64,000 nucleotides of DNA from Octopus vulgaris (lineage: Eukaryota), in the NCBI GenBank assembly GCA_951406725.2, contig OX597820.1, positions 91,698,001 to 91,762,000 of the forward strand, in the 5' to 3' direction. Numbering within the stretch: the first letter of the stretch is position 1; each line of letters begins with the position of its first letter. This document shows positions 6,746-57,895 of the stretch, piece after piece. Position numbers and translations under genes: made by a program. A model generated the notes under the pieces. It did no database searches and was not told where the DNA came from. It saw only the letters and a program-made list of their open reading frames with translations.

Positions 6746-7899
6746 AGTAGTCTTTAAATAATGAAACAACGCAGTGTCATTTGCTCATTGACACAAACAA
6801 TCTTCCCAATATCAACCATTACTTTGTACATATCATTTAATAGAAAGTGTATACGTTGTTGAGAAGTAATTGAAGATCGAAGCTTATGAACACGATACGA
6901 ATAAAAATTAGTTATCCTCCTTGATAACATTGGAGATAAGTGCATTTAATTGGTTACTACACACTCAGTGTATTGAACGGAAATACTCGAAATGATAAGT
7001 GATGTAAGACTTTAAAAACAACAATGTTTACCGACATTAACTAATCTACGGCATAAAAAGCATTAAAAATTCTAATGAAGTGCTTGCATTTTATGTTGCA
7101 GTGACAAATATGTAGATTAATACAGTGACATAGAGATAAAAAGAAAATTATACGATAATAGCACTGTAAGATTAGAAAAATTAACGATTCCACGCATCAA
7201 AAACAATTTCAATACTGATGCTGAGATATAGTAGCAACTTTGAATAAACCTAACATATAGAGTGTTGAACAAATTGTAAATAATATATAGCATTAAAACT
7301 CACTAACAAATTATATTTCGATTTAATATATTTGGAGAACTTGTGATATTTTGAATATGTAATGTGGGTCCTTCTGTGGATTTCTCCCTAATTGACTTAG
7401 ATGGGCTTTTGTTTTTTACCCTGTTGGGGAATTTTCATTAGAACTTTTTCCAAAACTTAAATATCAGGTTGCGTAAAAAGTAAGCAACGTTTAGAACCAT
7501 GAAGACTTTGTACCAGATTTTTGAACTCTTTTGAATCTTTTTAAACTTATTTTTGTAATTATCTGATAATACCGACTTAGACTTGCTGAAATGCATCAAT
7601 AAATTAATGTTGATATTTGTTTCACCGTCGTTACAACCATCTTGGCCGAGTTGGTCTTGAATTTTGTTTGTGTGTCTTTAGGGAAGATAGTGAAGGATTT
7701 GTTGAATTGGAATTATATTTGCTATTAATTGTTGTGTCTTGAGACACTTGTTTTTGTTGTCTTACGGCGGTTTTGTTAACGCTTTCTCCCTTGTTTGAAG
7801 GGAGAAGCGCATTACTTGTGTCTTCGTGATATATGAAGATTTAAATTCTTCATACGTAACGACGTATGAAGAAGAATTACTGAGAAATTTGGATATTGC

Positions 7900-8430
7900 A
7901 GAGCAGAAGATGGAAAAAAATGAAGGTAGAAAAAAAAATGAATTTTACAGCTGAAGATATTTGTTTTTAAAAAGTGGAGTTGAACAAGTGCAGGGAAATC
8001 CTAAGAAGGGAGGGGCACGAAGTAAAAGTGACCCCCATATCTGTGAAGTTACAAAGGACACGCAATGAAAGACAATAATATATAGAACATATAGTCTAGA
8101 TACAACAGGAATGGAAATTAATGACAAAACTACAAATTGAGAAGGCATCAAGACCCATCTGGCAGGATGTCACCTACCTTGCCTGAGGGGAAATACGCAA
8201 ATGTGGATGTGAGATTTTCATCCGAAGAAAAGGCCAGGCAACATTCGGTAGCCTTCCTGAAAACAGACGAGGTAATACTTCTGCCTACATACCTTAGAAG
8301 ACGTGCTTCTAGGGCAAGGGTAGAAGAGACCCACCCGAAGGTAGATGTCACCTGACTGGTGGCTGCAATACTGCTGGATGTAGAAGAGACGATACAGGTC
8401 CTCCATGTAACGAGAACGCCACTCGTTGGC
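7900..8430 (+). pseudogene. Decayed homolog of the L1/Tx1-type ORF1 at 17693-18979
   Basis: KTIIYRTY and GKYANVDVRFSSEEKARQHSVAFLKTDEVILLPTYLRRRASRARVEETHPKVDVT*LVAAILLDVEETIQVLH align with RTIIYRVF and SKYGTVVVHFKSESAARKMAAKAVKSEKVTLLPTYLNRRITRIRVEGVPPNVEAEWIVAAVISGHEDEVDILH. Contains stops and frameshifts. Confidence 0.85.
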
Positions 8431-8578: not shown

Positions 8579-8733
8579 CTGTGTGTGTCTTTGTGTGTGT
8601 ATGTATATATATATATATATATACATATATCTGTGCATATAGTGACGGAGGGTGCCAGTAATCACTAGCGTTGCTAGAAATAAGGGGCGAACCAAATTTT
8701 AGCCACACACATACACACACCCACACACACACA

Positions 8734-8803
8734 CGAAGGTAGATGTCACCTGGCTGGTGGCTGCAATACTGCTGCATGTAGAAGTGACGATAGAGATCCT
8801 CCA
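8734..8803 (+). repeat. Local ~70-bp duplicate of 8336-8405 (ORF1 fragment) embedded in (CA)n
   Basis: cgaaggtagatgtcacctg(a/g)ctggtggctgcaatactgctg(g/c)atgtagaag.. is present twice. Confidence 0.85.
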
Positions 8804-13447: not shown

Positions 13448-13969
13448 GTGTGCATGCGTATGAATATAGTGTGTAGACATTTAATATCGATAAACACATA
13501 CACACAATTGTGTGTACGTATGTATGTTTTTATGTATACAATCATATGTATATTAGAAAGAGGAAATTATATTTTCATCAGTAAACGATATGGGTATTAG
13601 ATGTAAATAAGACATTCAGACAGTTTCAAATTTCTAATATATTCTGTACGCTTTCTTTATATTCCACTTATTATTGCAATAGAGGGTGCAATGTGGCCGA
13701 ATTAGATGGAAGCCGTCTGGAGCAAATGTCATTTTTTTTAGCCTTCATTTGTGTGTGGAATTAGGTTGACGCCAACCGTACACTTCGTTCGGGTAGATTG
13801 TAACTCTAATTCAAGAACGTACATCCTAGCCACATATTGTGTCTTCTAATTCTATAGAATTACGTTAATACTACATATGGTTATGGGAATGAGTAGTCGC
13901 TTGCATTAATTTAGTTGATCAGCCACATAAGATCTCTACGTTTGACGGAAGTCAACCACCTCCAATATT

Positions 13970-14202
13970 TTCTTTTACTACCCACAAGGGGCTAAACATA
14001 GAGAGGACAAACAAGGACAGACAAGCGGATTAAGTCGATTATATTGACCCCAGTGTGTAACTGGTACTTAATTTATCGACCCCGAAAGGATGAAAAGCAA
14101 AGTCGGCCTCGGCGGAATTTGAACTCAGAACATAGCGGCAGACGAAGCAGCTAAGCATTTCACCCGGCGTGCAAACGATTCTGCCAGCTCGCCGCCCTTC
14201 AT
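13970..14202 (-). mobile_element. SINE family B, tail 1, with 14-bp TSD
   Basis: Full head-body-tail. Direct repeat CCACCTCCAATATT at 13956-13969 and 14203-14216. Confidence 0.9.
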
Positions 14203-14675
14203 CCACCTCCAATATTGACAAATATATTTTGCTGAATGCGTATTGTAGAAACCGGAGAGAACCGCCTTTCAATCTATTTATGTTACTATCTGCAGACATT
14301 AATAATTAATATATGTTATTTAATAATTGTCCAGTAAGAACATCTGGCAAATGATAAACGTTAATTTTAATTACTTCTTTCATGTTATTGTGAGATAATT
14401 ATAGTTCTTTAGATTGATAATATGTTTGTAAATATGTATATGTATACATCCACACACACTTACACATGCTTACATATAAGGCCGCATATATCTAAATAAA
14501 TATACGAGTACGAGTGAGTGGACAAATGAAAGACGGGTACTCAACTAATTTATTGGTAGTTACATGTATGTATCAAAACAGTTTGATTCAAATTCATTCT
14601 TACATTTCAGTTTCTAACGTGATGCTAATCGGTAGCCATTTTGAATTTGAATGACAGAAGTTGATTGTAATTACC

Positions 14676-14908
14676 TATTTCTTTATTACCCACAAGGGGC
14701 TAAACACAGAGGGGACAAACAAGGACAGACATAGGTATTAAGTCGATTACATCGACCCCAGTGCGTAACTGGTACTTAATTTATCGACCCCGAAAGGATG
14801 AAAGGCAAAGTCGACCTCGGCGGAATTTGAACTCACAACGTAACGACAGACGAAATACCGCTATGCATTTCGCCCGGCGTGCTAACGTTTCTGCCAGCTC
14901 GCCGCCTT
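14676..14908 (-). mobile_element. SINE family B, tail 1 (well-preserved copy)
   Basis: Sense strand reads GGCGGCGAGCTGGCAGAAACGTTAGC..GAGTTCAAATTCC (B box)..CCCCTTGTGGGTAATAAAGAAATA. Confidence 0.9.
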
Positions 14909-15120
14909 GACCGAACAGGTGGGCTGCGATTGGTCGAGGAAGGTGTCGTGGTTTCATGTTGGTATATGGGTAAGAGTTAGTTGTAAAATACTGAATGGCG
15001 AACAGGAAATGGACTGGGTGGAGGAAAGGAAATAAAGCACGTAGTGATTATAAATCAGTCAGGTTGTTGGTGTGGGGTACTAAAGGCAACATATGCAAAT
15101 ATATAGTTCTATATGTAAAT

Positions 15121-15327
15121 AATCGGTGGACCCGGGCAGTTGTCGAGTGGTACCCGCGTGAGCAGAAACTACCGCTCGGAAGGCCTCCACGACGGTGGAG
15201 TTACGATTTCAGGAGGACGATTGGGATCATGTGGATGACAAAGGCGCTATCCAGAGGAGTTAACAGCGTGCTGTGACCAGCGGTGTCAAATGGACGCCCG
15301 ACGAACTGGTCGGTCAAGGTCAAGCTG
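15121..15327 (+). mobile_element. 5'-truncated RTE-clade LINE 3' end
   Basis: NRWTRAVVEWYPREQKLPLGRPPRRWSYDF is the RTE C-terminal WxPRxxKRxxGRPxxRWxD motif. Possible 8-bp TSD ATGTAAAT at 15113-15120 / 15328-15335. Confidence 0.8.
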
Positions 15328-16500
15328 ATGTAAATGTGCAGACGCACTCATATAGATTTGTGTGAATATGTATATTGATACGAGTTTGCGCATCTCTACA
15401 TGGGCTCGCACGCGCACGTCTGCAAATATACACACAGGCACATGCACACATGTGCTTCGCCGAACACGCACGAGGACAGAGCGCCACCATATTCATCCGG
15501 TTCCCCCCTAACTGCTAGCTCTGCCCCCGCGAAAAACTGCATATCCTCCAACAACCCTCAGTATCCATTAACAAGAAATATGATTTATGGAATTGCTGTA
15601 ACCAGAGATACGCTCTTCTGACAAATTTCAGGTCCCTGGCTGGCGACAACCTGGATATACCACTTTAGTCTCAGCTGCTACACTAGGCCGCCTGCACCAA
15701 GGTCTCCTGTACCAAGCAATCTCATGACCAGGACCGCCATTTACTAATCCCCAAAGTTTACCAACTCCAAACGCAAACCAGTCCCCAAGACATACACATT
15801 CCCAACGCTTACCAATGCCCAAATTTACTTTCCGCTTGTATACTCGCGCACACGCGCAAGCAAGTGCAAATGTGCACGCGCATGGGTGTATGTGCACACA
15901 CTGGTAGGCATGCTTACATTCCTGCGAATATACATCTGTATATATGAATGAATACACATGTGTGTCTATGGGTGTATGTGTGTGCATGTGTGCGTATGCC
16001 TATGTATGTGTGTGCGTGTGCTCGTGTGCGTGTTCGTCCAAGCGTGTGTGTTAATGTGTGTGCGTGTGTGCAGACGTGCGCGTGTGAACCTATGTACAGA
16101 TGCGCACACTCGCATCAATATACACAAGCACGCAAAAATATATGGGCGCGTCTGTAAACCTACATATAGAACTATATCCTTGCACATGCAGCTCCTTCTT
16201 ACACCCCTTCCTCGAAAAACCCAACCGATTTTTAGTCGCCATGTCCTCTATTTCCTGCTCACCATGTTGTTAATTTCCTCTTTGCCATGCAGTATTTTAC
16301 AATTAACTTTTACCCACCCTTATACCACGATGAAACCACGACACCGCGTGAGCTTCCTCGACCAGGCCAACTTTATGGTAATAAGAATCAACTTCTGTCA
16401 TCCAAATTGGAAATGGCTGACGACTAGCATCATGCTTGAAACTCAAGCGTAGTAAGATATTTGAATCAAAGTGTTTCCTTTCCATATATATATATATATA

Positions 16501-16752
16501 TATATAATATAATTCGAGACAAAACCACTATTTTAAAACCAAACAAGAAAAGACTTAATCAATATATAAAATTTTAATATAAAATATTTATTTAATTTAT
16601 ATTAAAATTTTATGTATTGATTAAGTCTTTTCTTGTTTGGTTTTAAAATAGTGGTTTTGTCTCGAATTATATTATATAATATTTTACTATAAAATTGGAT
16701 TTAACCCTAAATCTGATTTTTCCCTGTAATTTTGGATTCATTCCCTAATATT

Positions 16753-16757
<5 letters not shown>
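16501..16757. repeat. Fold-back insertion within (TA)n: 83-bp inverted repeat plus unique tail
   Basis: Arms 16501-16583 and 16596-16678 with one mismatch and a 12-bp spacer. (TA)n on both sides. Confidence 0.85.
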
Positions 16758-16829
<72 letters not shown>

Positions 16830-16830
16830 A

Positions 16831-16980
16831 TGGCATATGGCATAGTGGTTAAGAGCGCGGGCTACTAATCCCAAGATTACGAGTTCGATTCCAGGCAGTG
16901 ACCTGAATAATAATAATACTACTACTAATAATAATAATAACATCGAAAAATTCCTTAGGAACGAGAACCCAGGTTCGAAA
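16831..16980 (+). mobile_element. tRNA-headed SINE family D, 3'-truncated
   Basis: TGGCATAGTGG (A box), GTTCGATTCC (B box), internal (AAT)n, then aacatcgaaaaat..cttagga..gagaacccaggttcgaaa. Homologous to 30062-30286. Confidence 0.8.
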
Positions 16981-17539
16981 TGGATTATAGGAAATGTGAG
17001 CAACATATGTTTCATAGCGAGTAAAACCTCATAAGTGATAAAATCCAAGTGAGTTTTAAAAAATAGAATACAAAATAGATTGGAATTATTCTTTATTATC
17101 GCATAGGAGGATTAACACAGATGGGGATGGCAATACAATGATAAGTAATAGAAGAACGGAAGTAAGAAGAGAAAGAGAAATAAATAAATAAAATAAAATA
17201 ATTTTTTAAAAAATAGAATACAAAATAGAGGAATGAGAGAAAGGGGGATGTGGACGGGTCGGTGTGGTAGATAATATAGTAGTTTTAGATTAATCATCTC
17301 AGAATTCAGTTGAGGGATTGGCATGTGAAGTGAAGGGAAATTGGAGAAGAGATGGTGGGGGTGAAATATTTTGGGTCACAGGGGACAAAAGAAAATGTCT
17401 GAATAAAGTAAGATGGAATGGGGTGTTTAAGTAAGGCTAGTCGTTTCATGGTCAAAAGGCGTAAATTTATGTTAACGGGTGGCAAGGGTAAGTGTGGGAA
17501 GGGGCAGAAATGTAAGGAGAGAATAATATTTTAGGTATT

Positions 17540-18990
17540 TATTTCTTTATTACCCACTAGGGGCGACACAGAGGTGAACACCAAAAGACATGGGGACATA
17601 GAACATTTATAATTAAAATTTATGAAAAATGAATTGTTAAGTGAAAGAAAATGATATTATGAAAGCGATACCAACGGCCCCATCCGTCAGCATCACTTAC
17701 CTGTCCTTTGTTTTTCATCGTCCCTTGAATGTTCTTTGCCAATACGAATAAATTCCATATCCATTCTTACTCCGAAATACTCATCCATATTTTCCACGAA
17801 TTCATCGCTCATTCTTATATCTTTCACCTCCCAATTCTCCCTTTCACACCTCACCACAAACTCATATATGTTCTTCTTTTCAATCACAGCATACCTAGTC
17901 TCACCAACTTCATACCATTTATACTCTTCCATTAGACTTTTAACTTCTTTCTGTTCAGTCATAGTACAAATGTACGGCCTGATATCGAATTCAATCTCTT
18001 GTCTGTGTGTATTCTCTTTTTTTTTCTTTTGTTTTCTTGTTGGGGGGGAGCGGGTGGGTTCAATGTCTGCATGGATAGGGTGGGACTCAGAGGGTGTGGG
18101 TGGTTTTGGGGTAGATTGGTGTTCCATGTTATTTTCTTTTCCTCGCATTCTTCTCTTCCTCTTATTTCCAACTTCCTTCCATTTCTGTGTATTCTCTTCC
18201 TCTTCTACTGTCTCCTTCTCCTCTGGTTTCTGCTTCTCTCTCTCTGGTTCGGAAGCCATTTCTTTCCCTGGGGGAGGGCAGAAGGCTCTTATGTGACCCC
18301 TCAGGCCACACTTGTAACAACGTGGAGCTCTGCCCTCCACCCACACTCTCATGATCACGTCTCCCAATCTGATGCTTTCCGCCAGGTCCACCAGTACCTC
18401 GTTCTCCGCCTGTACGTTCAGCTCCACTGTTACGCCTCTCCAGCCCTCGGACTTAACCGAGGCATGGAGAATATCCACTTCGTCCTCGTGGCCGCTGATC
18501 ACAGCCGCCACAATCCACTCTGCCTCCACGTTTGGTGGCACTCCCTCCACCCTTATTCGTGTAATCCTTCTGTTTAAATACGTAGGTAACAGTGTTACCT
18601 TTTCTGACTTCACCGCCTTCGCCGCCATCTTCCTCGCTGCAGACTCACTTTTAAAATGCACAACTACTGTGCCGTACTTGGATCCTCGAGTCAGAAAATA
18701 AATTTCCTCCTCAGTTCTTCTCAGGGCTTCCTCTATCCATTCCATGGTTACAACTTCTACCCTCTTCCTTTCGTTTGCGAACACCCTGTAAATAATGGTC
18801 CTCTTATCATACCATTCTTTTCTCCTGGGTGTCGGTGATAGTTCCACCTCACTGCTTTCCTTTTTCATGTATTTCTGGTAACTTGGTAGCTTGGCCAAGT
18901 CGACCCCTTTCTCTTCCGCCTTCTTGGTTACACCGGCGTAGGTATATCCCAGCTTCTCGTCCAATTTCCTTGCTGCCATTTCTAGCTCAG
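17540..18990 (-). mobile_element. ORF1-only (HAL1/Half-L1-like) non-LTR retroelement with 15-bp TSD
   Basis: Direct repeat AATATTTTAGGTATT at 17525-17539 and 18991-19005 brackets 11 nt of leader, the ORF and a ~150-nt 3' UTR ending CCCCTAGTGGGTAATAAAGAAATA. No RT or endonuclease. Confidence 0.85.
17693..18979 (-). CDS. L1/Tx1-type ORF1p (gag-like): RRM-like region, one CCHC zinc knuckle, charged linker, unknown C-terminal domain; 428 aa, intact
   Basis: CYKCGLRGHIRAFC (CX2CX4HX4C, 18278-18319). RNP-like YGTVVVHF and IRVEGVPP. WKEVGNKRKRR basic motif. Uninterrupted frame with higher GC than the flanks. Confidence 0.85.
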   Translation of the reverse strand: MAARKLDEKLGYTYAGVTKKAEEKGVDLAKLPSYQKYMKKESSEVELSPTPRRKEWYDKRTIIYRVFANERKRVEVVTMEWIEEALRRTEEEIYFLTRGSKYGTVVVHFKSESAARKMAAKAVKSEKVTLLPTYLNRRITRIRVEGVPPNVEAEWIVAAVISGHEDEVDILHASVKSEGWRGVTVELNVQAENEVLVDLAESIRLGDVIMRVWVEGRAPRCYKCGLRGHIRAFCPPPGKEMASEPEREKQKPEEKETVEEEENTQKWKEVGNKRKRRMRGKENNMEHQSTPKPPTPSESHPIHADIEPTRSPPTRKQKKKKENTHRQEIEFDIRPYICTMTEQKEVKSLMEEYKWYEVGETRYAVIEKKNIYEFVVRCERENWEVKDIRMSDEFVENMDEYFGVRMDMEFIRIGKEHSRDDEKQRTGK

Positions 18991-19548
18991 AATATTTTAG
19001 GTATTAAGTAAAAATACGCATAGAAAATAATAATTGATGATTAAGGAATTGAAAAAGGTGAAAAAATATTGTTGGTTTAGTACGTAGAGGTAGTGAGTGG
19101 ACGAGTAGGAAAAAGAATATATTAAGACAAAAGCGGGGTGGAGTAATTATTTGTGTTTCGAGAATAGATTTAATGCCCGATTTTTGCAGGTGAATATTAT
19201 ATTATACGTAATTTTACAATATAGTTCAAGAACATTTTCACATCCAAACACTCACTTACTATTTCACTGATGTAAACGAGTTTAGAAATTTAGTAATCGT
19301 CAACAATTCAAATTTGCAACACTAATGAACGAATATGAATACAGTGATAGACTGGAATTTCATCTTGAAATAAGTTACTGGCATCTATTTCGTTTTTCAT
19401 CAAAACATACACACATATACACACTTGCATATTTATGTGTGTGTGTTTGTGAATACATAAATACTAAAGTGAAGTAGAAACTGAAAAATCATAGTTAAAT
19501 AAAAATTTGTGAGAATCACACATAACCATACATAAAACTCCAGAAATA

Positions 19549-27639: not shown

Positions 27640-27642
<3 letters not shown>

Positions 27643-28052
27643 TCTTTACTCTTTTACTCTTTTACTTGTTTCAGTCATTTGACTGCGGCCATGCTGGAGC
27701 ACCGCCTTTAGTCGAGCAAATCGACCCCGGGACTTATTCTTTGTAAGCCCAGTACTTATTCTATCGGTCTCTTTTGCCGAACCGCTAGGTGACGGGGACG
27801 TAAACACACCAGCATCGGTCAAGCAATGCTAGGGGGACAAACACAGACACACAAACATATACACACACACTTATATATATATACATATATACGACAGGCT
27901 TCTTTCAGTTTCCGTCTACCAAATCCACTCACAAGGCATTGGTCGGCCCGGGGCTATAACAGAAGACACTTGCCCAAGATGCCACGCAGTGGGACTGAAC
28001 CCGGAACCATGTGGTTGATTAGCAAGCTACTTACCACACAGCCACTCCTGCG

Positions 28053-28056
<4 letters not shown>
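27640..28056 (-). mobile_element. SINE family A, intact, inserted in (TA)n
   Basis: Sense strand: TAGGCGCAGGAGTGGCTGTGTGG (A box)..GGTTCAGTCCC (B box)..internal TA/TG linker..tail (AAAAGAGT)n. (TA)n on both sides. Confidence 0.9.
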
Positions 28057-28112
<56 letters not shown>

Positions 28113-32528: not shown

Positions 32529-32600
32529 TGTATGTATGTATGCATGCATGCATGTATGTATGTATGTATGCATGTATGTACGTATTCAGGGTATTACTCA

Positions 32601-33000
32601 TTACTCTTTTACTTGTTTCAGTCATTTGACTGCGGCCATGCTAGAGCACAGCGTTTGGTCGAGCAAATTGACCCAAGGACCTATTCTTTGTAAGCCTAGT
32701 ACTTATTCTTACTTATTCTATCGGTCTCATTTGCCGAACCACTAAGTTAAGGGGACGTAGACAAACCAGCATCGGTTGTCAAGCGATGTTGGGGGGAAAC
32801 AAACACAGACACACAAACATATACACACACATACATATATATATTTGTATATACGATGAGCTTCTTTCAGTTTCCGTCTACCAAATCACAAGGCTTTGGT
32901 CGGCCCGAGACTATAGCAGAAGACACTTGCCCAAGTTTGCCACGCAGTGGGACTGAACCCAGAACCATGTGATTGGTAAGCAGGCTAAGTACCACACAGC
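32601..33000 (-). mobile_element. SINE family A
   Basis: Collinear with 27640-28056. Confidence 0.9.
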
Positions 33001-38779: not shown

Positions 38780-39171
38780 TTATTCTCTTTCAGTCATTTG
38801 ACTTTAGCCATGCTGGAGCACCGCCTTTAGTCGAGCAAATCGACACCAGGAATTATTTTTTGTAAGCCTAGTACTTATTCAATCGGTCTCTTTTGCCGAA
38901 CTGCTAAGTTATGGGGACGTAAACACACCAGCATCGGTTGTCAAGCGATGTTGGGAGGGGGACAAACACACTCACACAAATATATACACACATACATATA
39001 TATACACATATATACGACGGGCTTCTTTCAGTTTCAGTCTACCAAATCCACTCACAGGGAGTTGGTCGGCCGGAGGCAATAGTAGAAGATACTTGCCCAA
39101 GGTGCCACGCAGTGGGACTGAACACGGAACCATGCGGTTGGTAAACAAGCTACTTGCCACACAACCACTCT
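38780..39171 (-). mobile_element. SINE family A
   Basis: Collinear with 27640-28056. Confidence 0.9.
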
Positions 39172-39657
39172 TATACATTCATACATATGAAAACACATAT
39201 ATACGCAAAAACATACACCACCTATATGTATGCTTTTGTCTTTTATGTCTTTGGTGTATCGATGATACTTGATTCACAATTGTGTGTTATGCAATGCTAA
39301 CCACATAAATATAATAAATATCGACTCGGGCCACAAACATGACCAATACGACATTAAGTGGTTTCTATAAGGCGAGCAATTTGCGACTTTCGAAACGAGA
39401 CTACTTTGAAAATCCTAGCAGCCATTCTAAAACTGTCACGGTTGTCGTTTAAAAAATTGTACAAGAGCTGCAGATGAACTCTGATAGTGACCAGTTTAGA
39501 TTATATTACAAAAAATTTGACACCTCAAAAAATATGTGAAAAGAGATTTTAAAGATTTCCTTATCTTTAAATGGCTAAACTAGTGAAATTAATATGTATT
39601 CATGCATAAATACGGGCACATAATCACAAACGCATATATATATATATATATATGTAT

Positions 39658-39865: not shown

Positions 39866-41432
39866 TATATATATATGCATGTATGTATGTATTTGTGTAC
39901 GCGTTTATACGTGTATGTATGTATGTGTATATATGTGTGTATGTCTTTACATCAACTTAAAAATGTAACATAAATAGATTCTCTACAGAAGACAAGCTGT
40001 AAGTAGTGATTTTGATCAGATTCTCGTATTAGATGAAGCTAGTTTACTACAAGTTATATCATCAGTGTGATCTCTTGGAAAACTTTATTTCACTTGTAGT
40101 TCACCAGTGGTCGAAATATTCTTGAATCATGCAAGTTAAAATTGAGAAAGTACACATTAGAAAGGCATATACTTGCTTAGTGTCCTTATACAGTAAAGAG
40201 AGTAACGAGGGTAATTTTATACCCATACTTTAGAAGATTATTGAAGTTTGTTACATCAAACATTGCTATTTCTTAGAATTTTACAGCTTGGATCCCAATC
40301 AACCCTATTCAAAAATCTTACAAAGCATAGATCAAATACTATGTATAATATTACAGCCATCGATATGGAAAATTTTAATGGTACTCTCAACACACTATTA
40401 TTTCGGAAATTGAATTGACTAATTATACACTCAGTAGTCTACTCCTAATATAGTTGTGCATATGTATGTGTGTGTGTATGTATGCATGCATCCGCGCGCG
40501 TGTGTGTGTGCATGTATGTGCACGTGTATGTATGCGCACGTGAGTGTGTGCCTTTTGCAAATCGTGGCACAAAGTACCACAAACACAAATATTTTCTTAT
40601 GCTGCTATGGAATACAATAATTGCTGTTTGGGAATATTGAAATTATAGCTACAGTCTTGCTTAGTTATTTTGGAATGTTCGACTAGGTGTGTCTCTTTTT
40701 TTTAAAAAAAAAATTACTTTGATATTTTTAAAGGATTCTAAGACCTTTGTATATTAATAAGTTAATCAGAGAGGTAATATTGTATATTCTACTCCTAATT
40801 GCACGGGGAATTTTTCAACTCATTAAGAATGGATTCCTCAGAGCTTCTCAATGTGTAGGGAAAAAAGCTATAAAAAAAGGTATATTCGACGATTTCAATG
40901 GCTGGCTTTAATCATATATGTACTTTAATTTTCTTCAGTACGAAGAAATAAACACACATTAATCAATATCTTAATCTATTTTTATAAAATTCCTCCGACC
41001 TCTACTGTAAGGTATTCACGCTATGGATATTTATGTGCTTGGTTTAGTTACCAATTTTGTTTTTAATAGAGTAATAAATGAAGCGATCAATTTGTTTTAC
41101 TGTTATTTGAACCCAGAGTGTCGACTTATCAACGACTTATCATAGAATCATGAAGATTTATAAACTATTTTAATGGTAAGTCACATTTTCAGTCGGAAAT
41201 TTTCCCTAAAAAACTCACTCAATAAAACGTTTGGAGTATAAACTTTGAAGAAATTGGGATTCAACTGTGGACTGGATGGCTCCCAAATTTCACCGGCCAG
41301 CAAATTTATAGAAATGATTGCTCTAAGAAAATACTTTTATACTTGTATTCAAAATAGACAGCTACAATCCTAAGACATTAAAAATGAAGATAAATAAATA
41401 AATAGATACATATATAAACTAAATGAGTAAAT

Positions 41433-42255
41433 TTAGCGGTATTTCGTCTATTTTTACGTTCCGAGTTCAAATTCCAACGAGGTGGACTTTGCCTTTCATT
41501 CTTACGGGCTCCATAAATTAAGTAACAGTTGCGTACTGGCGTTGATCTAATCGACTGGCCCTGCTCTCCAAATATTTCGGGCCTCTTGCCTAGAATAGAA
41601 AATAATATTTTAGTGAATATATAAGACGGTGAGCTGGTTGATTCGTTAGCACGCTGGGCGAAATGTTTATCGGTATTTGGTCTGCCGTTACGTTCTGGGT
41701 TCAAATCCTGCCGATTTAGACTTTGCTTTTCATCCTTTCGTGGTCAATAAATTAAGTACCAGTGAAACATTGGGGTCGATGTAATCGACTAGTCCCCTCC
41801 ACTAAAATTTCCGGCCTTGTGCCTGTAGTAGAAAAGAATCATTAACTTGCCGGGCAAAATGTTTAACGGCATTTCCATCATCCTTGCTTTCTGAGTTCAA
41901 ATTCCGCCGAAGTCAATTTTTCGTTTCATCTCTTCGGAGGCGATAAAATAAGTTCCAGTTGAACACTGGGAGCGATATAATCGACTTACCCCCTATCCCG
42001 AAACAGTTGGCTATGTGCCAAATTTTGAAACGAATGTTTTAGTGAATATATCAGGCAGCGAGTTGGTAGAATTATTAGCACGCCAGAAAAATTGCTTAAC
42101 GGCATTTCAACCGTCCTTACGTTCTGATTAAAAATTCTGCTGAACCTGACTTTCGGGGTCGATAAAGCAAGTAGTAGTTGAAAACTGGAATCGATGTAAT
42201 CGACTTACCTTCTTTCAAAATTGCTGGCCCTGTGTCAAAATGCGAAATCAGTATT
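41433..42255 (+). mobile_element. Head-to-tail cluster of four SINE family B (tail 2) units
   Basis: Units at ~41433-41607, 41623-41842, 41843-42036 and 42052-42255. Direct repeat TTTTAGTGAATATAT at 41608-41622 and 42037-42051. Confidence 0.85.
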
Positions 42256-44329
42256 CTTGTAAATATATACATGACGAAATAAAAACATTCGCCAATACTG
42301 TAAATGAGAATCCGTAATAAAATAGTAACAAAATAATAGCTATCAATAAATAGTTCGTAATAATGGTGAAGTACGAAATGATTTATATGAAAAGTAACTA
42401 ATATGCATTCAGCCCACTTTTGCGTCCGCTATATGATTTACAAAAATAAAGCACACACTATCCGAAAAGAATATTAGAATATATGGTTTTGCGAGAGTGG
42501 ATGTTGTGAAGTAAAAACGGTAATAATGCACCAGAATGGATATAAATTCATATCTACACAAAGCATACTGAACGTCGAAAAATGTTAACATACAACCCAG
42601 CGTGTTGGATGGGACTACAACCGTCTTGCTGTACTGACAGAATATCCATGCCCTTTATTTGCAAACTATGCTAAAAAGTTTCTTTAACTATATTATGTGA
42701 AACAAGCTTACTAGAAAACAGATTAAAGAAAGCACCTCATTCATAGGATGACAACTTAGACCAAAGGCTATATACAGAGACAGGGAAAATTTTTCACAGA
42801 AAAATGGGATTGTGGTTTTTCATTAAAGCTTCTTGCATGCAAAATGTTCAGCTGTTGATTACAGACGCTATAACAGAATACTAAAAAGGGAGGAGAATTC
42901 ATAAAATTATATAGATTATTTATCAGAAAAGATCTCTGACATTGTCAGCTGAGTTGCTTTATATAAGTGGAACTGGAAATACACATACCGGAAAGCAAGT
43001 TGAGAGAAGAAAGTAATTAGTGTGCTGAATGAAGAATCTAAATCAAATTGCGAGAGATGAAATTTACTTATGATGTCAAATGAAACCAATAGAATGGCGT
43101 TTTATTATTCCAGTATTAATTTTGTAAAATGAGGACAGAATGTTAATGGTATTGATTTTTTTAATACTGGTTATATATACGCATCTATGGCTAAATGAAT
43201 AGGCCCCAGCACATGACTGTAGATATTTTCTTAAAGTTAGAGGAATGGAATTTGATGTTAACCGTAGTGTTATATCTAAATCTATTGAATGTGCGATTTT
43301 ACAACGTTAGCAAATTAAAAGTTCGTTGAAATACGAAAATACAATAGCGACCCTTACAGGATGCATCCTGGTAAAAACTGTTGCGTGGTAATTGACTTGT
43401 GGAAATGAATTTAAGCTTACACAGCAAGAGGTTGGGTTGAGAAACCGAACAAAACATTATCAGAAAGTAACGTGGAAATATTGAAGGTGTATATCTTAAG
43501 CAAATATAGATAGATGACAACACGCTTAACTATTACAGTCATAAATACCATCATTTCACATTCTTAGTAAGCCACAGCACTATACCTCAGCATGCGTACA
43601 ATTCTACACACATACTCTCCCGAAAAGCATATACGATTCACCCATATACTCGTCTTTAAACATGGATAAACTATACTCGCACATACACACCAACCTGCCT
43701 TCCTTTCATCTCATTCCCATGAAACCGCATTACTATCTGACTGTCATGCTTTTTCTCTCTCTTTCACTGACGATTCGACTTTCTCACTTTGCTATTTTCT
43801 TCTGATGAAACATAAACGTCCAAGCGGTTGAAACTTTTCCGTTTCGAAATTAAGTGTGAAACCACAATCGTGTGTGTTAAAATTTGTCCTTCCTGTGTTA
43901 TCTTTTATATTTAGTTTTTAGTTTTGAAGTTTTCCATTGCAATAACGATACACACGCACACACTCACACATATATACATATAAGTGTGTGTGTGTGTGTG
44001 TGCGTATTTGTGTTTGTATATGTGTATGTGTGTGTTTGATGAATTTACGGATAACAGGCATCTTAGAATAGAAATGCAATTCTAAAACATATGTAAAACA
44101 AGTTAAGGATATTTTTTCAGCCCTGAATATATAAGGACACTGGGGTTATATATAAAATTGAGCATTAATATTTTAAGCAAGTCGAAAACTCAATCACTCT
44201 ATGTCATGGCGAAAAATAGCAGAATCGATAGAAACTCGGACTAAATGCCAAGGTAGATCTCTTACATTCTGCTTTTAAATAGCTCCGAGGTCGACTTTTA
44301 CAAATAGTCCAATAGGCCTAATATTGATT

Positions 44330-44892
44330 TCCAATGTTGCCGCAACTGCATCAACCTCTGGAGAAGGGGGGGGGGTAAGTCGATAACATCGATTCCAGTA
44401 TTTAACTGGTTCTTATTTTATCGACCCCAAAAGGATGAAAGGCAAAGTCGACCTCGGCGGAATTTGAACTCAGAACACAAAGACAGACGGAATACCTATC
44501 TCTTTAGAACCCACAAGGGGCTAAACACAGAGGGAACAAACAAAGACAGATAAACGGATTAAGTCGATTATACCAGTGCGCAACTGGTACTTATTTAATC
44601 GACCCCGAAAGGATGACTGGCAAAGTTGACCTCGGCGGAATTTGAACTCAGAACGTATCGGCAGACGAAATACCTATTTCTTTACTACCCATAAGGGGAT
44701 AAACACAGAGATGACAAACAAGGATAGACAAGCGGATTAAGTCGATTATATTGACTCCAGTGTGTAACACGTACTTAATTTATCGACCTCGAAAAGATGA
44801 CCTCGGCGGAATTTGAACACAGAACATAACTGCAGACGAAATACCGCTAAGCATTATTCCCGGCGTGCTAACGATCCTGCCAGTTTCTTGCC
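44330..44892 (-). mobile_element. SINE family B trimer (one tail-2 unit, two tail-1 units)
   Basis: Two internal junctions, both at ..AATACC|TAT(C/T)TCTTTA.. Confidence 0.85.
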
Positions 44893-50278: not shown

Positions 50279-50320
50279 GCATGCATGTATGTATGTATAC
50301 ACTGATTTACAATATATTTC

Positions 50321-50370
<50 letters not shown>

Positions 50371-50374
<4 letters not shown>

Positions 50375-52082
50375 AATATGATTATATGACCAATTTCACA
50401 AGTAAAACTAGCCAATTCTACGGTATACCTAAGATCCACAAAAGTGAAAAAATAAGCAACGCATGCAAGATAGCTACAGACAAAATAATTAAAGTCCCTA
50501 ATCCTAATGACCTCAAATTGAGACCCATAATAGCAGGTCCCGCATGCGAAACCCACCGCCTCAGTAACTTTTTAGACACCCTGTTAAAACCACTCCTCAA
50601 ACATGTCAAAAGCTATATAAGGGACGACTTAGATATGCTCAATCACCTACCGAATACTATAAACAAAAACACCATACTGGTATCCTTCGATGTAGTCAAC
50701 CTCTACTCCAATATCCCCCACAACCTAGGACTAGAAGCAATCCAATTCTGGCTAGAGAATCACGCCAACGAACTACCACACCGCATCAAAAAAGAATTTG
50801 TGATAGAAGGGGTTAAATTCATCCTGGAAAATAACTTCTTCGCCTTCAATGACAACTTCTACCGACAAAAATCGGGGACTGCGATGGGTACACGAATGGC
50901 CCCCTCCTTTGCCAACCTAGTCATAGGATACCTAGAGATCAGTCTGTATCGTAAGGTTCTAGAAAGATATGGCAGCCCTTTCTCCATCTACATAGAAAAC
51001 AACTGGAAGAGATATCTAGATGACTGTTTCATCCTTTGGCATAAAAATATAGAAAAACTCATAGAATTCCAGAAAATTTTAAACGGACTGGACGTAAACA
51101 TCCAATTCACGATGGAATATAGCCAACAACAACTCCCCTTCCTCGATATCCTCATTAAGAAAGCTAATAATATAATAGAAACAGACATATACTATAAGCC
51201 TACAGACTCTAAGCAATATCTTCCATTCAATTCATGCCACCCCAGACACACCAGGATGAATATCCCCTTCAATCTAGCAAAAAGGATATGCACTATAGTC
51301 TCTAACGCAAACACCAGAGACACACGACTACAAGAACTAAAAGATACCCTAATCACCAGGAACTATCCACCTTCACTTATTGACAAGTGCATTCAACGTG
51401 CCCTTCAACTTAACATCAAGGAACTGAGACATCCCAAATCAAAGAAAAACTTACAACCAAAAGCCTTACCATACATCTCCACACACAACCCTCTCAATAA
51501 CGAAGCCTTCGACACCATCCTCCACAACATACCCCTCCTAAAAAAAGACCACAGAATGAACACAATCCTCCAAACACACACGATCATAAAAAGCAAAAGA
51601 CAGCCTAGATCCATGAAAAGTCTCCTTACACAAGCCCGAATTCACTCTTCAACACAGAAGCCGACAGTAAAAAAATGTGGAAGACCCAATTGCGGGATAT
51701 GCGACTATCTAATCGAGGGTTCTGAGTTCTCCTTCAAACAGGGACAACGGTTTACAGTGAAAAGCAACTCCACATGTGCTTCGGAGAACCTAATATACTC
51801 ACTAACCTGCTCCGGGTGTCAAGAGCAGTACATAGGCCAAACAAAAAATTGTTTGCGTAAACGAATGGCCCTGCACAGATCCCAGATAAAAATTCCCCAA
51901 AACAGAAAAATAGCTTTTAGCCAACAAATAGATACTTGCGCCAACAAAAAAACACCAAACTTCAGAATTTCCCCCTCTACCAATTTAGGGACGATACAAC
52001 CTCGAGACAAAGAATAAGTAAAGAAAATCTCTTTATTACAAAATACAAGCCACTTCTTAACGGGTCTACGACAAACAATTAA
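50371..52082 (+). pseudogene. PLE reverse transcriptase + Cys-linker + GIY-YIG endonuclease; N-terminally truncated, one frameshift near 51970
   Basis: YGIPKIHK, LRPII, VSFDVVNLYSNIP, GTAMGTRMAPSFANL, WKRYLDDCF, LPFLDI, YYKPT..SCHP, CGRPNCGIC and NLIYSLTCSGCQEQYIGQT..RMALH. The shifted frame continues LYQFRDDTTSRQRISKENLFITKYKPLLNG..* to 52082. The ORF-track start at 50281 is (TA)n-derived. Confidence 0.92.
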
Positions 52083-52957: not shown

Positions 52958-55876
52958 ATATGGATGTATGTGTATGAGTGTATGTTTCCATATGTGTTTA
53001 CATCTGTATATGTATATATCCATATATCTACACATATGCATGGATATACGTGCTTTTTTCGTCTAACTGAATGTAATCCAAACAGCATACAAAAGCCACT
53101 GTATTAAAGTGCATTTTAAAACAAAATAGTACTGTAGCTGTACTTTAGAAATAATCTTTAGCAAACACTTTTTTAGGCACACATAATATACTCTTTCATA
53201 ATCTAATTTTGTTATTAGTCTTTCAGTTTTCTAAAACATAGTCCGTTAGGAAAGATAAGCCAAAGATGAACAGCAGAAGTAAACTACCTGCCAATTATAG
53301 TTTTTTTTGTTGTTTTTAATGTCATTTTGCACATTTTCACCTAAGCGCTGCCTTCTCTTTTTATTGCGAAAGGTTATTAACCCCCCAATATAAAAATATA
53401 AAGTAAATTATAAACTGTAATTCTGACTTATTTACGTAGATACTTTGATTTGTATTGCTTGGATTTTTAGTTAGTTAAACTTTGTATATCCCACAATGTT
53501 TCATGCTTTAAGTTATCGGTTCTCTATTCATAACATGCTTTTGTTTACTGTTTTGATGAAGCTTGTCACATCTTACTGGTTGTCAGTTTAAATTTACATT
53601 TAAGTCTTACATTGTCTCATAAAATTTAAATATGGAATATGAAATTTTATGCAAACATTTTCAGAATTACTTTGTTTTGTGCATTATCGGTATAACAAAT
53701 ACATGTTGGTACGATTCTACTAGTTATTAATACGTTTCTATTGACACATTTTGAGTTGTTTCTATGACATGAAATGACATAAAACAAAAGCAAAACTTTC
53801 ATTTATAATGGGCAATATAATTATAAAGGCAATGATGTGAAGAAATTAATGGCAGCATAACTTTTATTTCTAAAGTAATGACTTCTATAAAAAGTTGTGC
53901 GTGTACCATATTTAGCACATTTTTATGATCCAGAGAAAGTTGTGAAAATACTTTACCGCCCACCCTAACTTTGTAACGATGTAAGAAAATTATTGAGGAA
54001 ATGAAACTCTGACGAAATACCCAACTACAAATAGCAATATGTGCTGACAACAAATTCTCGCAAGAATTTATGAATAAATATTAATTTGATTTGCTACAAG
54101 GCATAAAACAATTTTCTATATTGGAAAGACATTGCATTTAAATGATAGATTGCCAGAGTACAATTGAGATAGGTGAATAATTTAAAAACATTATTTTGAT
54201 TTTCATAAAATTATATTAGTTGAATTACTGAAATAGAAATTTGATGTACGAAATGCAGTGAATTGGTGAGGTTGGATATAATATTTCGTAAAATTAATAC
54301 AATTCTGGTTTACAATAAATCATAAAAATATGAATTCAAAAGTAAATTCGATTTCTTTGCTATCTCACGGTCTGAAATATACTGTGAATATGTTATATTG
54401 TGTCACAACGGTATTCTGTTATATTGAACGTAATGCAGCGCCAAGTATGAGAAAACCCATTAATGTAGAGATGGATATAATAATTGTTTCAATTGCTTCG
54501 CCGCATTCTTTTGCTAGTAAAGATTTATAATATCATAGAATGCAATTTCTATCACAGCAGTGGTGAGAAATTAAAGTAGCAATTCATTTATGACCGTTTG
54601 ATATCTACATTGTGAAAACAATTGATATAATTTTGCTTTATTAATCCTAAATTACTGTAGTTTCTAATAACCATAGTTCCATAGTTCTACTTCAGTTTAG
54701 CAAATGTCTAAAATATATATGTATTACAAATTAGATAATCTACTCTCACATTGGCAAGTATAAACCTAATTAGAATCTAAATATAGAATGGACTCTCCTT
54801 ACGTTAACAGACATGAATTTTATCATTTTCAAATAGATATTTTGAAGCATCATATGTAGTACAATAAAGCTAAACGTTTGCAAGTTAATCTTTACAAGTA
54901 TACTAACATAACACTTTCTGTCCAATAAACGTGAGAAATATAGAAATGTATTAAATCTGTTGGACAAAAAAGAAACATACAAGTCAAGATTATCGCTTAA
55001 ACTGTTAGATGCATGAAGCATTTCTCTTTCAAATTTGTGTTATATTTAATAAAAGGTTATATTTGAAAATGTGATTGAGATATAACCTGTGAGAAAAATA
55101 GGTGTCCCTGTGACTGAAATACATATGATCCTGCATGCTTACATAGCATCATCTTCATCACTACTAAGATCATCATCGTCGTCGTCGTCATGATCATCGT
55201 TACCATCGTCATCATCATTCAATATAACGGCAAGAGTTATCTATAAGACCAACACTTTTACCGGAGTTGAGAATCATTTTGTAAATGTGAGAATCTACTG
55301 ATAATTCTTACTACAGTTATTTTTCATTTACTTTCATTTTATTTCATTGTTGAATACAATATATTTCAATAAAGTTATGATGGAACCAGTTGAAATGAAC
55401 AAAAAAACTTATAAAATCTAAGCAAACAACTTGCGTTTCATGTTTTGGTGACATGCGACATTTATACACCTTTTCTATTTAATAAGCAGTAAACTGGCAT
55501 TCAAAATGATGTACAAACGTTTACTGTCGCAGTGAATATTGTTATTGGATTGTTCTACAATTTTAATGCATACTTCTTTTAAATATATACATATTCAATA
55601 AAAGATGAGCATAATATTATCAAAAGTTGTACTTTATATATACAAATTTCTATATTCATCATTATTGTGTATCTTTCTTACTGATTTGAAGATCTAGCTT
55701 CTCTTTCTAGCAATACGAGTAATCACATAAAAGTCTCACATTTTAAAATATACATTTGCATGTTTGCAATTGCTGTTCGAAATTATTATTAAAAAGTTAA
55801 TGTTATGCAACATAGTGTGCATGTATATTGTATGTGCCTAAGCGGTTTTTCATTTAGTGTCGTGAATTTATATCCA

Positions 55877-56288
55877 AGCGTAGGAGTGACTATGGGGTAA
55901 GTAGCTTGCTTACGAACCACATGGTTCCTGGTTCAGTCCCACTGCATGGCATCTTGGGTTAGTGTCTTCTACAATAGGCTCGAGCCGACTAAAACCTTGT
56001 GAGTGGATTTGGGTAGACGGAGACTGAAAGAAGCCGGTCGTATATATGTATATATTTATGTATGTGTGTGTGTATGTTTGTGTGTCTGTGGTTGTCCACC
56101 CAACCTCGCTTGACAACCGATACTGGTGTGTTTACATCCCCGTAACTTAGCGGTTCGCAAAAGAGACCGATAGAATAAGTACTAGGCTTACAAAGAATAA
56201 ATCCTAGGGTCGATTTGTTCGACTAAAGGCGGTGATCCAGCACGGCCACAATCAAATGACTGAAACAAGTAAAAGAGTAAAAGAGTAA
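55877..56288 (+). mobile_element. SINE family A
   Basis: gcgtaggagtgactatggggtaagtagcttgc..ggttcagtcccactgc..tgactgaaacaagtaaaagagtaaaagagt. Confidence 0.9.
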
Positions 56289-57473
56289 AGAGAGAGAGAG
56301 AGAGTATTTATGGTAAACGTCTATTGCATGCGAGCCTCATTCTTTGTGCATGTTGATTGATTTGTGGTGGTTATAGAGATAGTATTTTGTCACGCATGTG
56401 TATATGATTTTATACTGTACGCAATCCTCAGAAGCACTTTTAGCAGACATATAAAAATATGACACAATACTTGGAGATATCGAGTGAACATATATCGAAA
56501 TTTTTTTATTACATTTTTGTGGATAAATTGAGTTAAGAAAACAATTCTCTTTTGAAATAGAAAAGTAATAAACAATTCTGTATGAATAAATGGAGAATTG
56601 TAACTTTTCAAATATTAATATGTTTTCTAAAATATTTTAAAGGCATATGATCGCTAATTTATTTCTAGAAACTTAGGAGATGGATCAGTATCTTCCTGAC
56701 CTCTAAGCTGAATATGTGACAATTTATTTTCTGTTGTTTTCTTCACATAGGGGTGGTCAATAAGAAATATATACTTTGAAGAAAAATTCAAACTGTGTGC
56801 GTATTAGAGAATACTGAGTAGAAGTTTGTTTTATTAGTCTTCCAATGCTTAGCTAAAATACAATGGTCTGGGTTAACATAAAACATAGAATATTCTAATA
56901 AGCAGCGAAGAAAATGAAGCTTCGCCTGAAATAATATTGAAGCAAGCAAACATACTTTGCAAGCACTATTTCACAAGTATATATTCGAACAAAAAATTTT
57001 GCCTTGTATAAAATGTATTTTAATGTTATAGTTTCGAAAGTAGATGTATTGGCTAAACATATACTGAAAAATAATATTTAATGAGGATAGAACATGGATA
57101 ATAATCAATCAAAATTATTCCGTGTAACATTCGCCTGCCTACTTTTAACGCTTTTTTTTCTTGCACAAAACCTAGATACAAATTCACAGGTACGTGGTGC
57201 ATGCTTTTGTGATATGTATGTGTGTCGGTATGTACGTGTGTATCTGTGTGTGCATGTGTATTTATTAATATATATATATATATATATTGAGTCATCCCAT
57301 AGATAATGCTGTTTCTTCAACTGCATGGTCTAAAGGTCGGAGGGATAGGATAAACTACCAGCATCAACTTGCTATAAAACAGGTAGTAATTTTACCTTGT
57401 AGTTATTCTTAGTGCAAATCTAGAAGCATGCAGATAGATTTTAACAGTTATTTTTCAAAACTATAAAGTCACA

Positions 57474-57895
57474 ATATTCTTTTGCACTCTAGGCACAAGG
57501 CCTGAAATTTGGTGGGGGGCAGTCGATTAGATCGAACCAGTAATTAATTTATCGACCCCGAAAGGATGAAAGACAAAGTCGACCTCGTTGGAATTTGAAC
57601 TCTAGTGTAAAAACAGACGAAATACCGCTAAGCATTCTTTCCCCCGGCGTGCTAACGTTTCTTATTTCTTTATTGCCCAAAACGGTCTAAACCTAGAGGT
57701 GACAAACAAGGACAGACAAACTTATTAAGTCGATTATATCGACCCCAGTGCGTAACTGGTACTTATTTAATCGACCGCGAAATGATGAAAGGCAAAGTCG
57801 ACCTCGCCGGAATTTGAACTCAGAACGTAACGGCAGACAAAATACGGCTACGCATTTAGCCCGGCGTGCTAACGCTTCTGCCAACTCACCGCTTT
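57474..57895 (-). mobile_element. SINE family B dimer (tail-2 unit joined to tail-1 unit)
   Basis: Junction gctaacgtttct|tatttctttattgccc at ~57662. Confidence 0.85.

Follow-up and report, generated by a model that had tools for sequence, protein, structure and literature searches.

The window analysed here, a 64,000-nt stretch of Octopus vulgaris DNA, carries on its minus strand a retro-inserted unit of 1451 bp (17540-18990), which is a non-LTR retro-insertion coding solely for an ORF1-type protein. The features of this unit, bounded by its target-site duplication (TSD), and two further loci of the same window are as follows.

18991..19005, minus strand: TSD, 5' copy, 15 bp; on the strand of the element, the target is TT|AATA
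18980..18990, minus strand: 11 nt before the ATG, in-frame and stop-free (E-L-E); likely truncation point within ORF1
17693..18979, minus strand: ORF1, 428 codons, its starting Met probably internal
18569..18832, minus strand: RRM 1, aa ~50-137, predicted (AlphaFold, La/nucleolin RRM match)
18326..18571, minus strand: second ferredoxin-like/RRM-type domain, aa ~137-218, predicted
18278..18319, minus strand: single CCHC zinc knuckle C221-C224-H229-C234, from the sequence
17696..18001, minus strand: C-terminal module, aa 327-428, the portion present in O. vulgaris gene models
17695..17703, minus strand: consensus splice donor CAG|GTAAGT over the last ORF1 codons, unspliced here and used by many O. 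vulgaris models
17540..17692, minus strand: 3' region, 153 nt, no ORF2 remnant recognised in three frames
17540..17594, minus strand: 3' tail common to a tRNA-type SINE, ending in AATAAAGAAATA, no poly(A)
17525..17539, minus strand: TSD, 3' copy, the same 15-mer AATATTTTAGGTATT
13955..14215 (bounds approximate), minus strand: comparison locus, a SINE copy that has the same tail and a TSD of 14 bp
7829..8421, plus strand: decayed distant ORF1 homolog with stops and frameshifts, longer N-terminal motif kept

An earlier note on this DNA had placed the unit between identical 15-bp repeats, and its coordinates were confirmed, the 15-mer AATATTTTAGGTATT being found at 17525-17539 and 18991-19005 and at no third place on the two strands of the window, with a chance of ~2e-8 per position as computed from the flank composition. 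Outside low complexity, the window contains five two-copy exact repeats of at least 15 nt spaced 500-3000 nt apart, and the four besides the TSD are SINE/tail matches. The GC content of the unit interior is 45%, versus 29% and 32% in the flanks. The ORF1 frame (18979-17693) runs for 428 codons free of stops. Between its stop and the TSD are 153 nt, which include AATAAA (17551-17546), not followed by poly(A), and end in AATAAAGAAATA directly at the TSD. No piece of ORF2 was recognisable when these 153 nt were read in three frames, so that the short 3' end lacking ORF2 described previously holds for this copy. Between 11 and 26 kb, the only stop-to-stop frames of at least 120 aa are ORF1, its opposite strand and microsatellite text, and an Rfam search over 13800-19300 gave 10 sub-threshold matches, none of them inside the element. 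The unit presents the features of target-primed reverse transcription, namely a TSD, an intact 3' end and a (probably) truncated 5' end.

Around the unit, the flanks are strongly C/T-rich and G-poor on the minus strand and perhaps represent an old LINE 3' UTR, and a near-perfect, AT-rich and MITE-like palindrome is located at 16501-16678 (86-nt arms, 98% complementary, 6-nt spacer). Elsewhere in the window, a Penelope-like element fragment is found at 50281-52017 (+), with a 578-aa ORF matching RT at E 2e-8 and, weakly, GIY-YIG, and an interspersed repeat of ~420 nt occurs in copies 82-87% identical at 27642-28065, 32594-33000, 38788-39203 and 55866-56292.

The insertion is likely young, as had also been proposed, considering its identical TSDs and its open frame. 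The probability that a neutral copy keeps such a frame open was estimated, under an assumed indel rate, at ~0.0004-0.03 at 5% divergence and 0.045-0.25 at 2%. The description of the ORF as intact is correct for the stop-free frame of 428 codons, but probably not for its start. The 11 nt preceding the ATG read in frame as E-L-E, and BLASTP aligned this stretch to coding residues of the O. bimaculoides protein P0122 from residue 15 on (15-17); they therefore likely mark a truncation point rather than a 5' UTR. P0122 and P0061 begin with MYSDL..EEE, 14-18 residues upstream of the unit's Met, and the decayed homolog has kept the longer N-terminal motif of these relatives in the form IYEDL..EEELL (at 7829). 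Judging by these alignments, the copy is probably 5'-truncated by ~14 codons inside ORF1 and hence devoid of a 5' UTR. Alternatively, the ORF1 start may be naturally short, which would fit some distant relatives (P0034, P0043 and P0070) that start near the equivalent of the unit's Met. Target-primed reverse transcription usually leaves 5'-truncated, promoterless copies, and a truncation within ORF1 would imply that the promoter was lost and that this copy is probably a dead end.

Modelling of the protein with AlphaFold, as had been suggested earlier, yielded for aa 1-260 a mean pLDDT of 89.8 (96-sequence alignment) and two predicted RRM-type domains followed by the CCHC knuckle. In VIA-align, aa 49-137 matched the La and nucleolin RRMs (Z 9.0-9.3, rmsd 2.5, 78-81 residues aligned), and the best single-domain matches of aa 137-218 were ACT/ferredoxin folds, with Z up to 8.5. 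Foldseek with the ORF1 model retrieved tandem-RRM proteins, with 50 matches at E<=0.001; no L1 ORF1p structure is among the PDB matches listed, an absence that carries no weight. With Pfam, zf-CCHC alone was matched in the ORF1 protein (E 0.065, below the cut-off) and by 25 of 96 family members at E<=0.1, and Transposase_22 had no match in the ORF1 protein. The type I ORF1p of Khazina and Weichenrieder is defined by one or more RRMs placed immediately ahead of a CCHC knuckle (PMC4120745), and this arrangement is present in the unit's protein, its RRMs being predicted. The model thus points to a predicted RRM-RRM-CCHC protein of type I. The model of the C-terminal module (pLDDT 49) was too poor for a structure search, no Atlas match was obtained for it, and a profile test for its homology to other ORF1 C-termini was negative, with 239 of 1000 shuffles scoring as well.

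RRM/CCHC variants of ORF1 in non-mammalian animals have been linked to Tx1 (PMC5203782). The Atlas feature match of the protein to ZCCHC3 RNA-binding domains was borderline (0.90, 160 shared features), and the Pfam entry RBD_ZCCHC3 is absent among the matches listed for family members. ZCCHC3 derives from Tx1 ORF1. This origin is not stated in the available part of PMC10351740. Taken together, the type I fold with its published tie to Tx1, the origin of ZCCHC3 and the borderline Atlas link make the Tx1/L1 group the likely clade of the unit, as judged from ORF1 alone in a unit that has no RT. The Atlas match and the AATAAA near the end could also suit a processed retrocopy of a domesticated ORF1-derived host gene, ZCCHC3-like in nature. 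Such an origin is extremely improbable, since the unit has no poly(A) but a tail of LINE/SINE type, and since the 359 divergent clusters (built at 50% identity) that match the ORF1 protein, the many subfamilies and the decayed copies compose a transposon pattern.

Sequence comparisons support the earlier proposal that this ORF1 belongs to a family, which is multi-copy in Octopus. The named clusters are from O. vulgaris, O. sinensis, O. bimaculoides and Argonauta; 46 of the 181 fetched proteins align at 65% identity or more, 44 of these 46 being named O. vulgaris, and the close relatives are located on 20 distinct chromosome-size contigs. All 58 close alignments are confined to aa 316-428, and the C-terminal module is present in at least 94 proteins, nearly all of them O. 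vulgaris gene models. Among 110 copies of the module, the best have 86 of 87 residues identical, and several module subfamilies, at 56-99% identity, remain stop-free. A metagenome scan with the ORF1 protein gave 583 pattern matches, none of which was confirmed. The decayed homolog that had been placed at 7900-8430 is real (42% identity over 8191-8412, E 8e-12, extended by the family profile to 7887-8421), but it was rejected as proof of the unit's family on account of this identity; by its alignment it is a distant subfamily, cut off in RRM2, and says nothing about ORF2. A 77-nt duplicate (91%) of its positions 8329-8405 is found at 8727-8803, amid microsatellites.

Of the 77 accession numbers that were shown, 51 lie within 5 of another one, against a mean of 2.2 and a maximum of 12 over 2000 random draws. 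Single gene models also mix module subfamilies, and together these observations suggest that the family copies lie in local same-orientation clusters, a signal that isoforms and gene-poor regions could inflate. Six models (P0001, P0002, P0158, P0159, P0161 and P0192) are dimers to tetramers of a 99-aa module with in-frame donor-to-upstream-acceptor joins; the plain reading is that adjacent copies were spliced together, back-splicing being an alternative, and DNA tandem duplication as the sole cause of dimers and trimers was rejected because units of different subfamilies are mixed. In other O. vulgaris models (P0003, P0005, P0014 and P0178), exons of host-like or other type are attached to the module, with HAUS1 (Pfam), an HTH-psq domain and a model named TP53RK isoform as partners, and such fusions are either an annotation artefact or real exonisation. 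A distant ORF1 family (P0030, P0230-P0232) is represented by four Logan contigs of 1849-1930 nt each, which could be ORF1-only transcripts or reflect assembly limits.

Similarity to other ORF1 families ends at aa ~320-330. The restriction of close relatives to aa 316-428 could result from 5' truncation near the tail or from masking, as the ab initio models of O. vulgaris were built on a repeat-masked assembly (PMC10700109), and masking explains the boundary equally well; the C-terminal bias is therefore not confidently truncation, and masking would hide ORF2 as well. Both boundaries, as well as the negative profile test of the module, would also be expected if a mobile multi-copy unit of ~450 nt, composed of the C-terminal module and the 3' region, had been joined in frame to an ORF1 RNA by template switch. 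This chimeric origin is very unlikely, given that the join is in frame, stop-free and enclosed within one TSD. Of the 24 public sequencing runs listed, 20 hold some portion of the unit; they come from 11 studies and bear 5 organism labels, none of those on record being RNA. The 18 with shares below 0.5 were left aside. The other two, under two organism labels, contain at least half of its sampled words (0.75 and 0.52), exceeding the 31% that the 3' part represents, although the run with 0.75 may be the window's own source.

The stop codon of ORF1 is shared by 48 of the 94 module-bearing proteins, and the other 46 run on into other sequence, nearly all of them from the position of the CAG|GTAAGT donor. 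In model P0102, this donor is spliced into a peptide of tail type (score 45 versus a maximum of 44 in 200 shuffles), which, at the level of predicted protein, links ORF1 and tail in a second copy, by a spliced gene model and not by genomic spacing; P0216 contains the same donor-to-tail-peptide splice, not significant alone. A weak search for longer fused forms (1296-3700 aa) found none among 6816 candidates, and no fused or linked ORF2 was found.

The direct join of ORF1 to the tail in DNA is known from one copy, and this single observation would be compatible with a one-off defective copy of an ordinary two-ORF LINE of Tx1/L1 type, whose ORF2 was lost by an RT template jump or a later deletion. 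O. vulgaris harbors 80 L1-Tx1 families, 13 of them recently active, with 421 insertions (PMC13282606, Table 1) and an average length of ~5.4 kb for the active ones, as computed from the same table; repeat masking can explain the gene-model pattern, and a SINE-shared tail suits a normal LINE equally. This origin is possible but rather unlikely, since the loss would have spared the very stop used by the 48 relatives and left no recognisable ORF2 piece in the 153 nt, and since none of the 46 downstream extensions was read by eye as a Tx1 EN or RT (Pfam was applied to 7), an argument that masking weakens. Splicing from the donor at the ORF1 end was rejected as the cause of ORF2 loss, because the strong donor is still present in the unit, which excludes simple splicing from it.

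Over the final 40-55 nt, the unit agrees with the tails of five SINE copies of this window in 35-41 of 54 columns (65-76%), with a blastn E of 1.7e-7 between unit tail and SINE tail. A profile built from the five SINE tails alone matched the unit at 17577-17540 with 28.2 bits (E 7e-8), the maximum in the reversed window being 4.3, and in the same profile comparison the SINE body had no match in the element. The tail pattern has 6 matches in the window versus 0 in 100 shuffles, a count that is not independent, as the pattern was built from those copies. Three tailed SINE copies were tested, and one of them carries a TSD of 14 bp, which begins with AATA and overlaps the tail end, like that of the element. 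The consensus of the L1 endonuclease is a TT|AA-like site, and we take the insertion sites of both element and SINE to resemble it. A tail common to a SINE and a LINE is an established sign of stringent 3' recognition (PMC3747384, PMC4824008). Seven folds of the tail gave z values between -1.8 and +1.1, without significant secondary structure. In three non-animal contig collections (viral, metagenomic and prokaryotic), the tail pattern had 0 matches each, and no ORF2-bearing element with the tail was found there.

ARAGORN found 0 tRNAs, and the head of the SINE is therefore called tRNA-like from A/B-box-like motifs only; this SINE is presumably of the Nin/Deu type. It has 20 body matches in the window and also occurs in head-to-tail partial tandem arrays with a period of ~178 nt (44376-44883, 41432-42268 and 57462-57895). 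A possible seventh, degenerate tail copy (E 0.12) is located at 17089-17125 (-); it has the orientation of the element and lies ~420 nt downstream of it.

The reading that we prefer, and to which we give slightly better than an even chance, is that the unit is a young, 5'-truncated copy of a non-autonomous ORF1-only family, mobilised in trans via the shared tail. A LINE-type tail at the 3' end, a 5' end within ORF1 and a TSD are what would be expected from the copying of an RNA without ORF2. A source copy would be transcribed and its ORF1p would coat its own RNA, with the endonuclease and the reverse transcriptase supplied by an autonomous LINE that probably belongs to the Tx1/L1 group, for which candidates exist in the recently active L1-Tx1 families of O. 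vulgaris. The partner ORF2p would recognise the 40-55-nt tail and nick the bottom strand at TATT/RA, and reverse transcription would be primed on the matching AAUA end of the RNA; copying would have stopped ~14 codons short of the ORF1 start, leaving a promoterless and probably dead-end copy. The SINE would use the same partner ORF2p.

A broader scenario, which we regard as improbable in its entirety, would be that of a Tx1-derived ORF1-only family, old, as its several subfamilies would indicate, yet active, arranged in same-orientation local clusters on most octopus chromosomes in a HeT-A-like piling away from telomeres. Via the shared non-poly(A) tail, such a family would compete for a single partner enzyme with a SINE that is among the commonest in octopus, and the donor at the end of its ORF1 would give rise to real chimeric transcripts with host genes. 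Should the family be ORF1-only, it would represent another independent origin of the strategy of keeping ORF1 and borrowing ORF2, this time in neither mammals nor insects and probably derived from Tx1-group elements. It would also allow a natural test of why ORF1 is needed in cis when ORF2 may come from another element. The shared tail further gives a pointer to the LINE that serves an abundant octopus SINE as partner, a partner unnamed in the literature searched. Moreover, ~100 O. vulgaris 'hypothetical proteins', some of them fused to real genes, are pieces of this element.

No cephalopod ORF1-only element was found in the literature searched, but one may be contained in Repbase, Dfam or the Zenodo library that accompanies PMC13282606. 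The available parts of PMC9115989, PMC8967140, PMC4758252, PMC10294476 and PMC4494074 describe no cephalopod ORF1-only case, and a term search of the supplement of PMC13282606 found 'ORF1', 'HAL1' and 'non-autonomous' to be absent. Non-autonomous LINEs with ORF1 present are known as HeT-A in Jockey, HAL1 in L1 and Ag-Sponge in CR1 (PMC5786205), and HAL1 arose several times in mammals (PMC5753468).

The unit shares with HAL1, after which the earlier note had named it, its non-autonomous nature, the coding of ORF1p alone, and an L1-group-like TSD and target site. In the strict sense, this label does not hold, since the HAL1 ORF1p is of type II (coiled coil, one RRM, CTD; Transposase_22), whereas that of the unit is predicted to be of the RRM-RRM-CCHC type I, and the unit has, instead of poly(A), a sequence-specific tail common to a SINE, as well as a cephalopod host and an independent origin. 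HAL1 has a poly(A) 3' end. The same 3' end is documented for L1 (PMC3747384). With HeT-A and Ag-Sponge, the unit shares, in this copy, an ORF1 joined to a LINE 3' end without RT or ORF2. The ORF1 of HeT-A is of type I and carries CCHC knuckles. ORF1 proteins of this kind were shown for TART/TAHRE (PMC4120745). The unit differs from HeT-A and Ag-Sponge in its one knuckle instead of three, its interstitial insertion with a TSD, its 3' region of 153 nt and the lack of telomere evidence.

The Tx1-clade (L1-Tx1) LINEs have in common with the unit a type I-like ORF1 and a TSD of 14-15 bp (PMC4494074, PMC5203782, PMC13282606), and this clade is present and recently active in O. vulgaris (PMC13282606). 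Unlike these LINEs, the unit copy, a putative member of the clade, is devoid of ORF2. We assume that its TT|AA-like site fits the L1 consensus, as for Tx1-clade LINEs. The octopus tRNA-derived SINE shares with the unit the last 40-55 nt and the TSD signature, but has a tRNA-like head and no ORF, whereas the unit has no SINE body. The unit is thus a real ORF2-less retro-insertion, probably of the already known ORF1-only LINE kind represented by HeT-A, HAL1 and Ag-Sponge, to which the SINE-shared tail is an extra.
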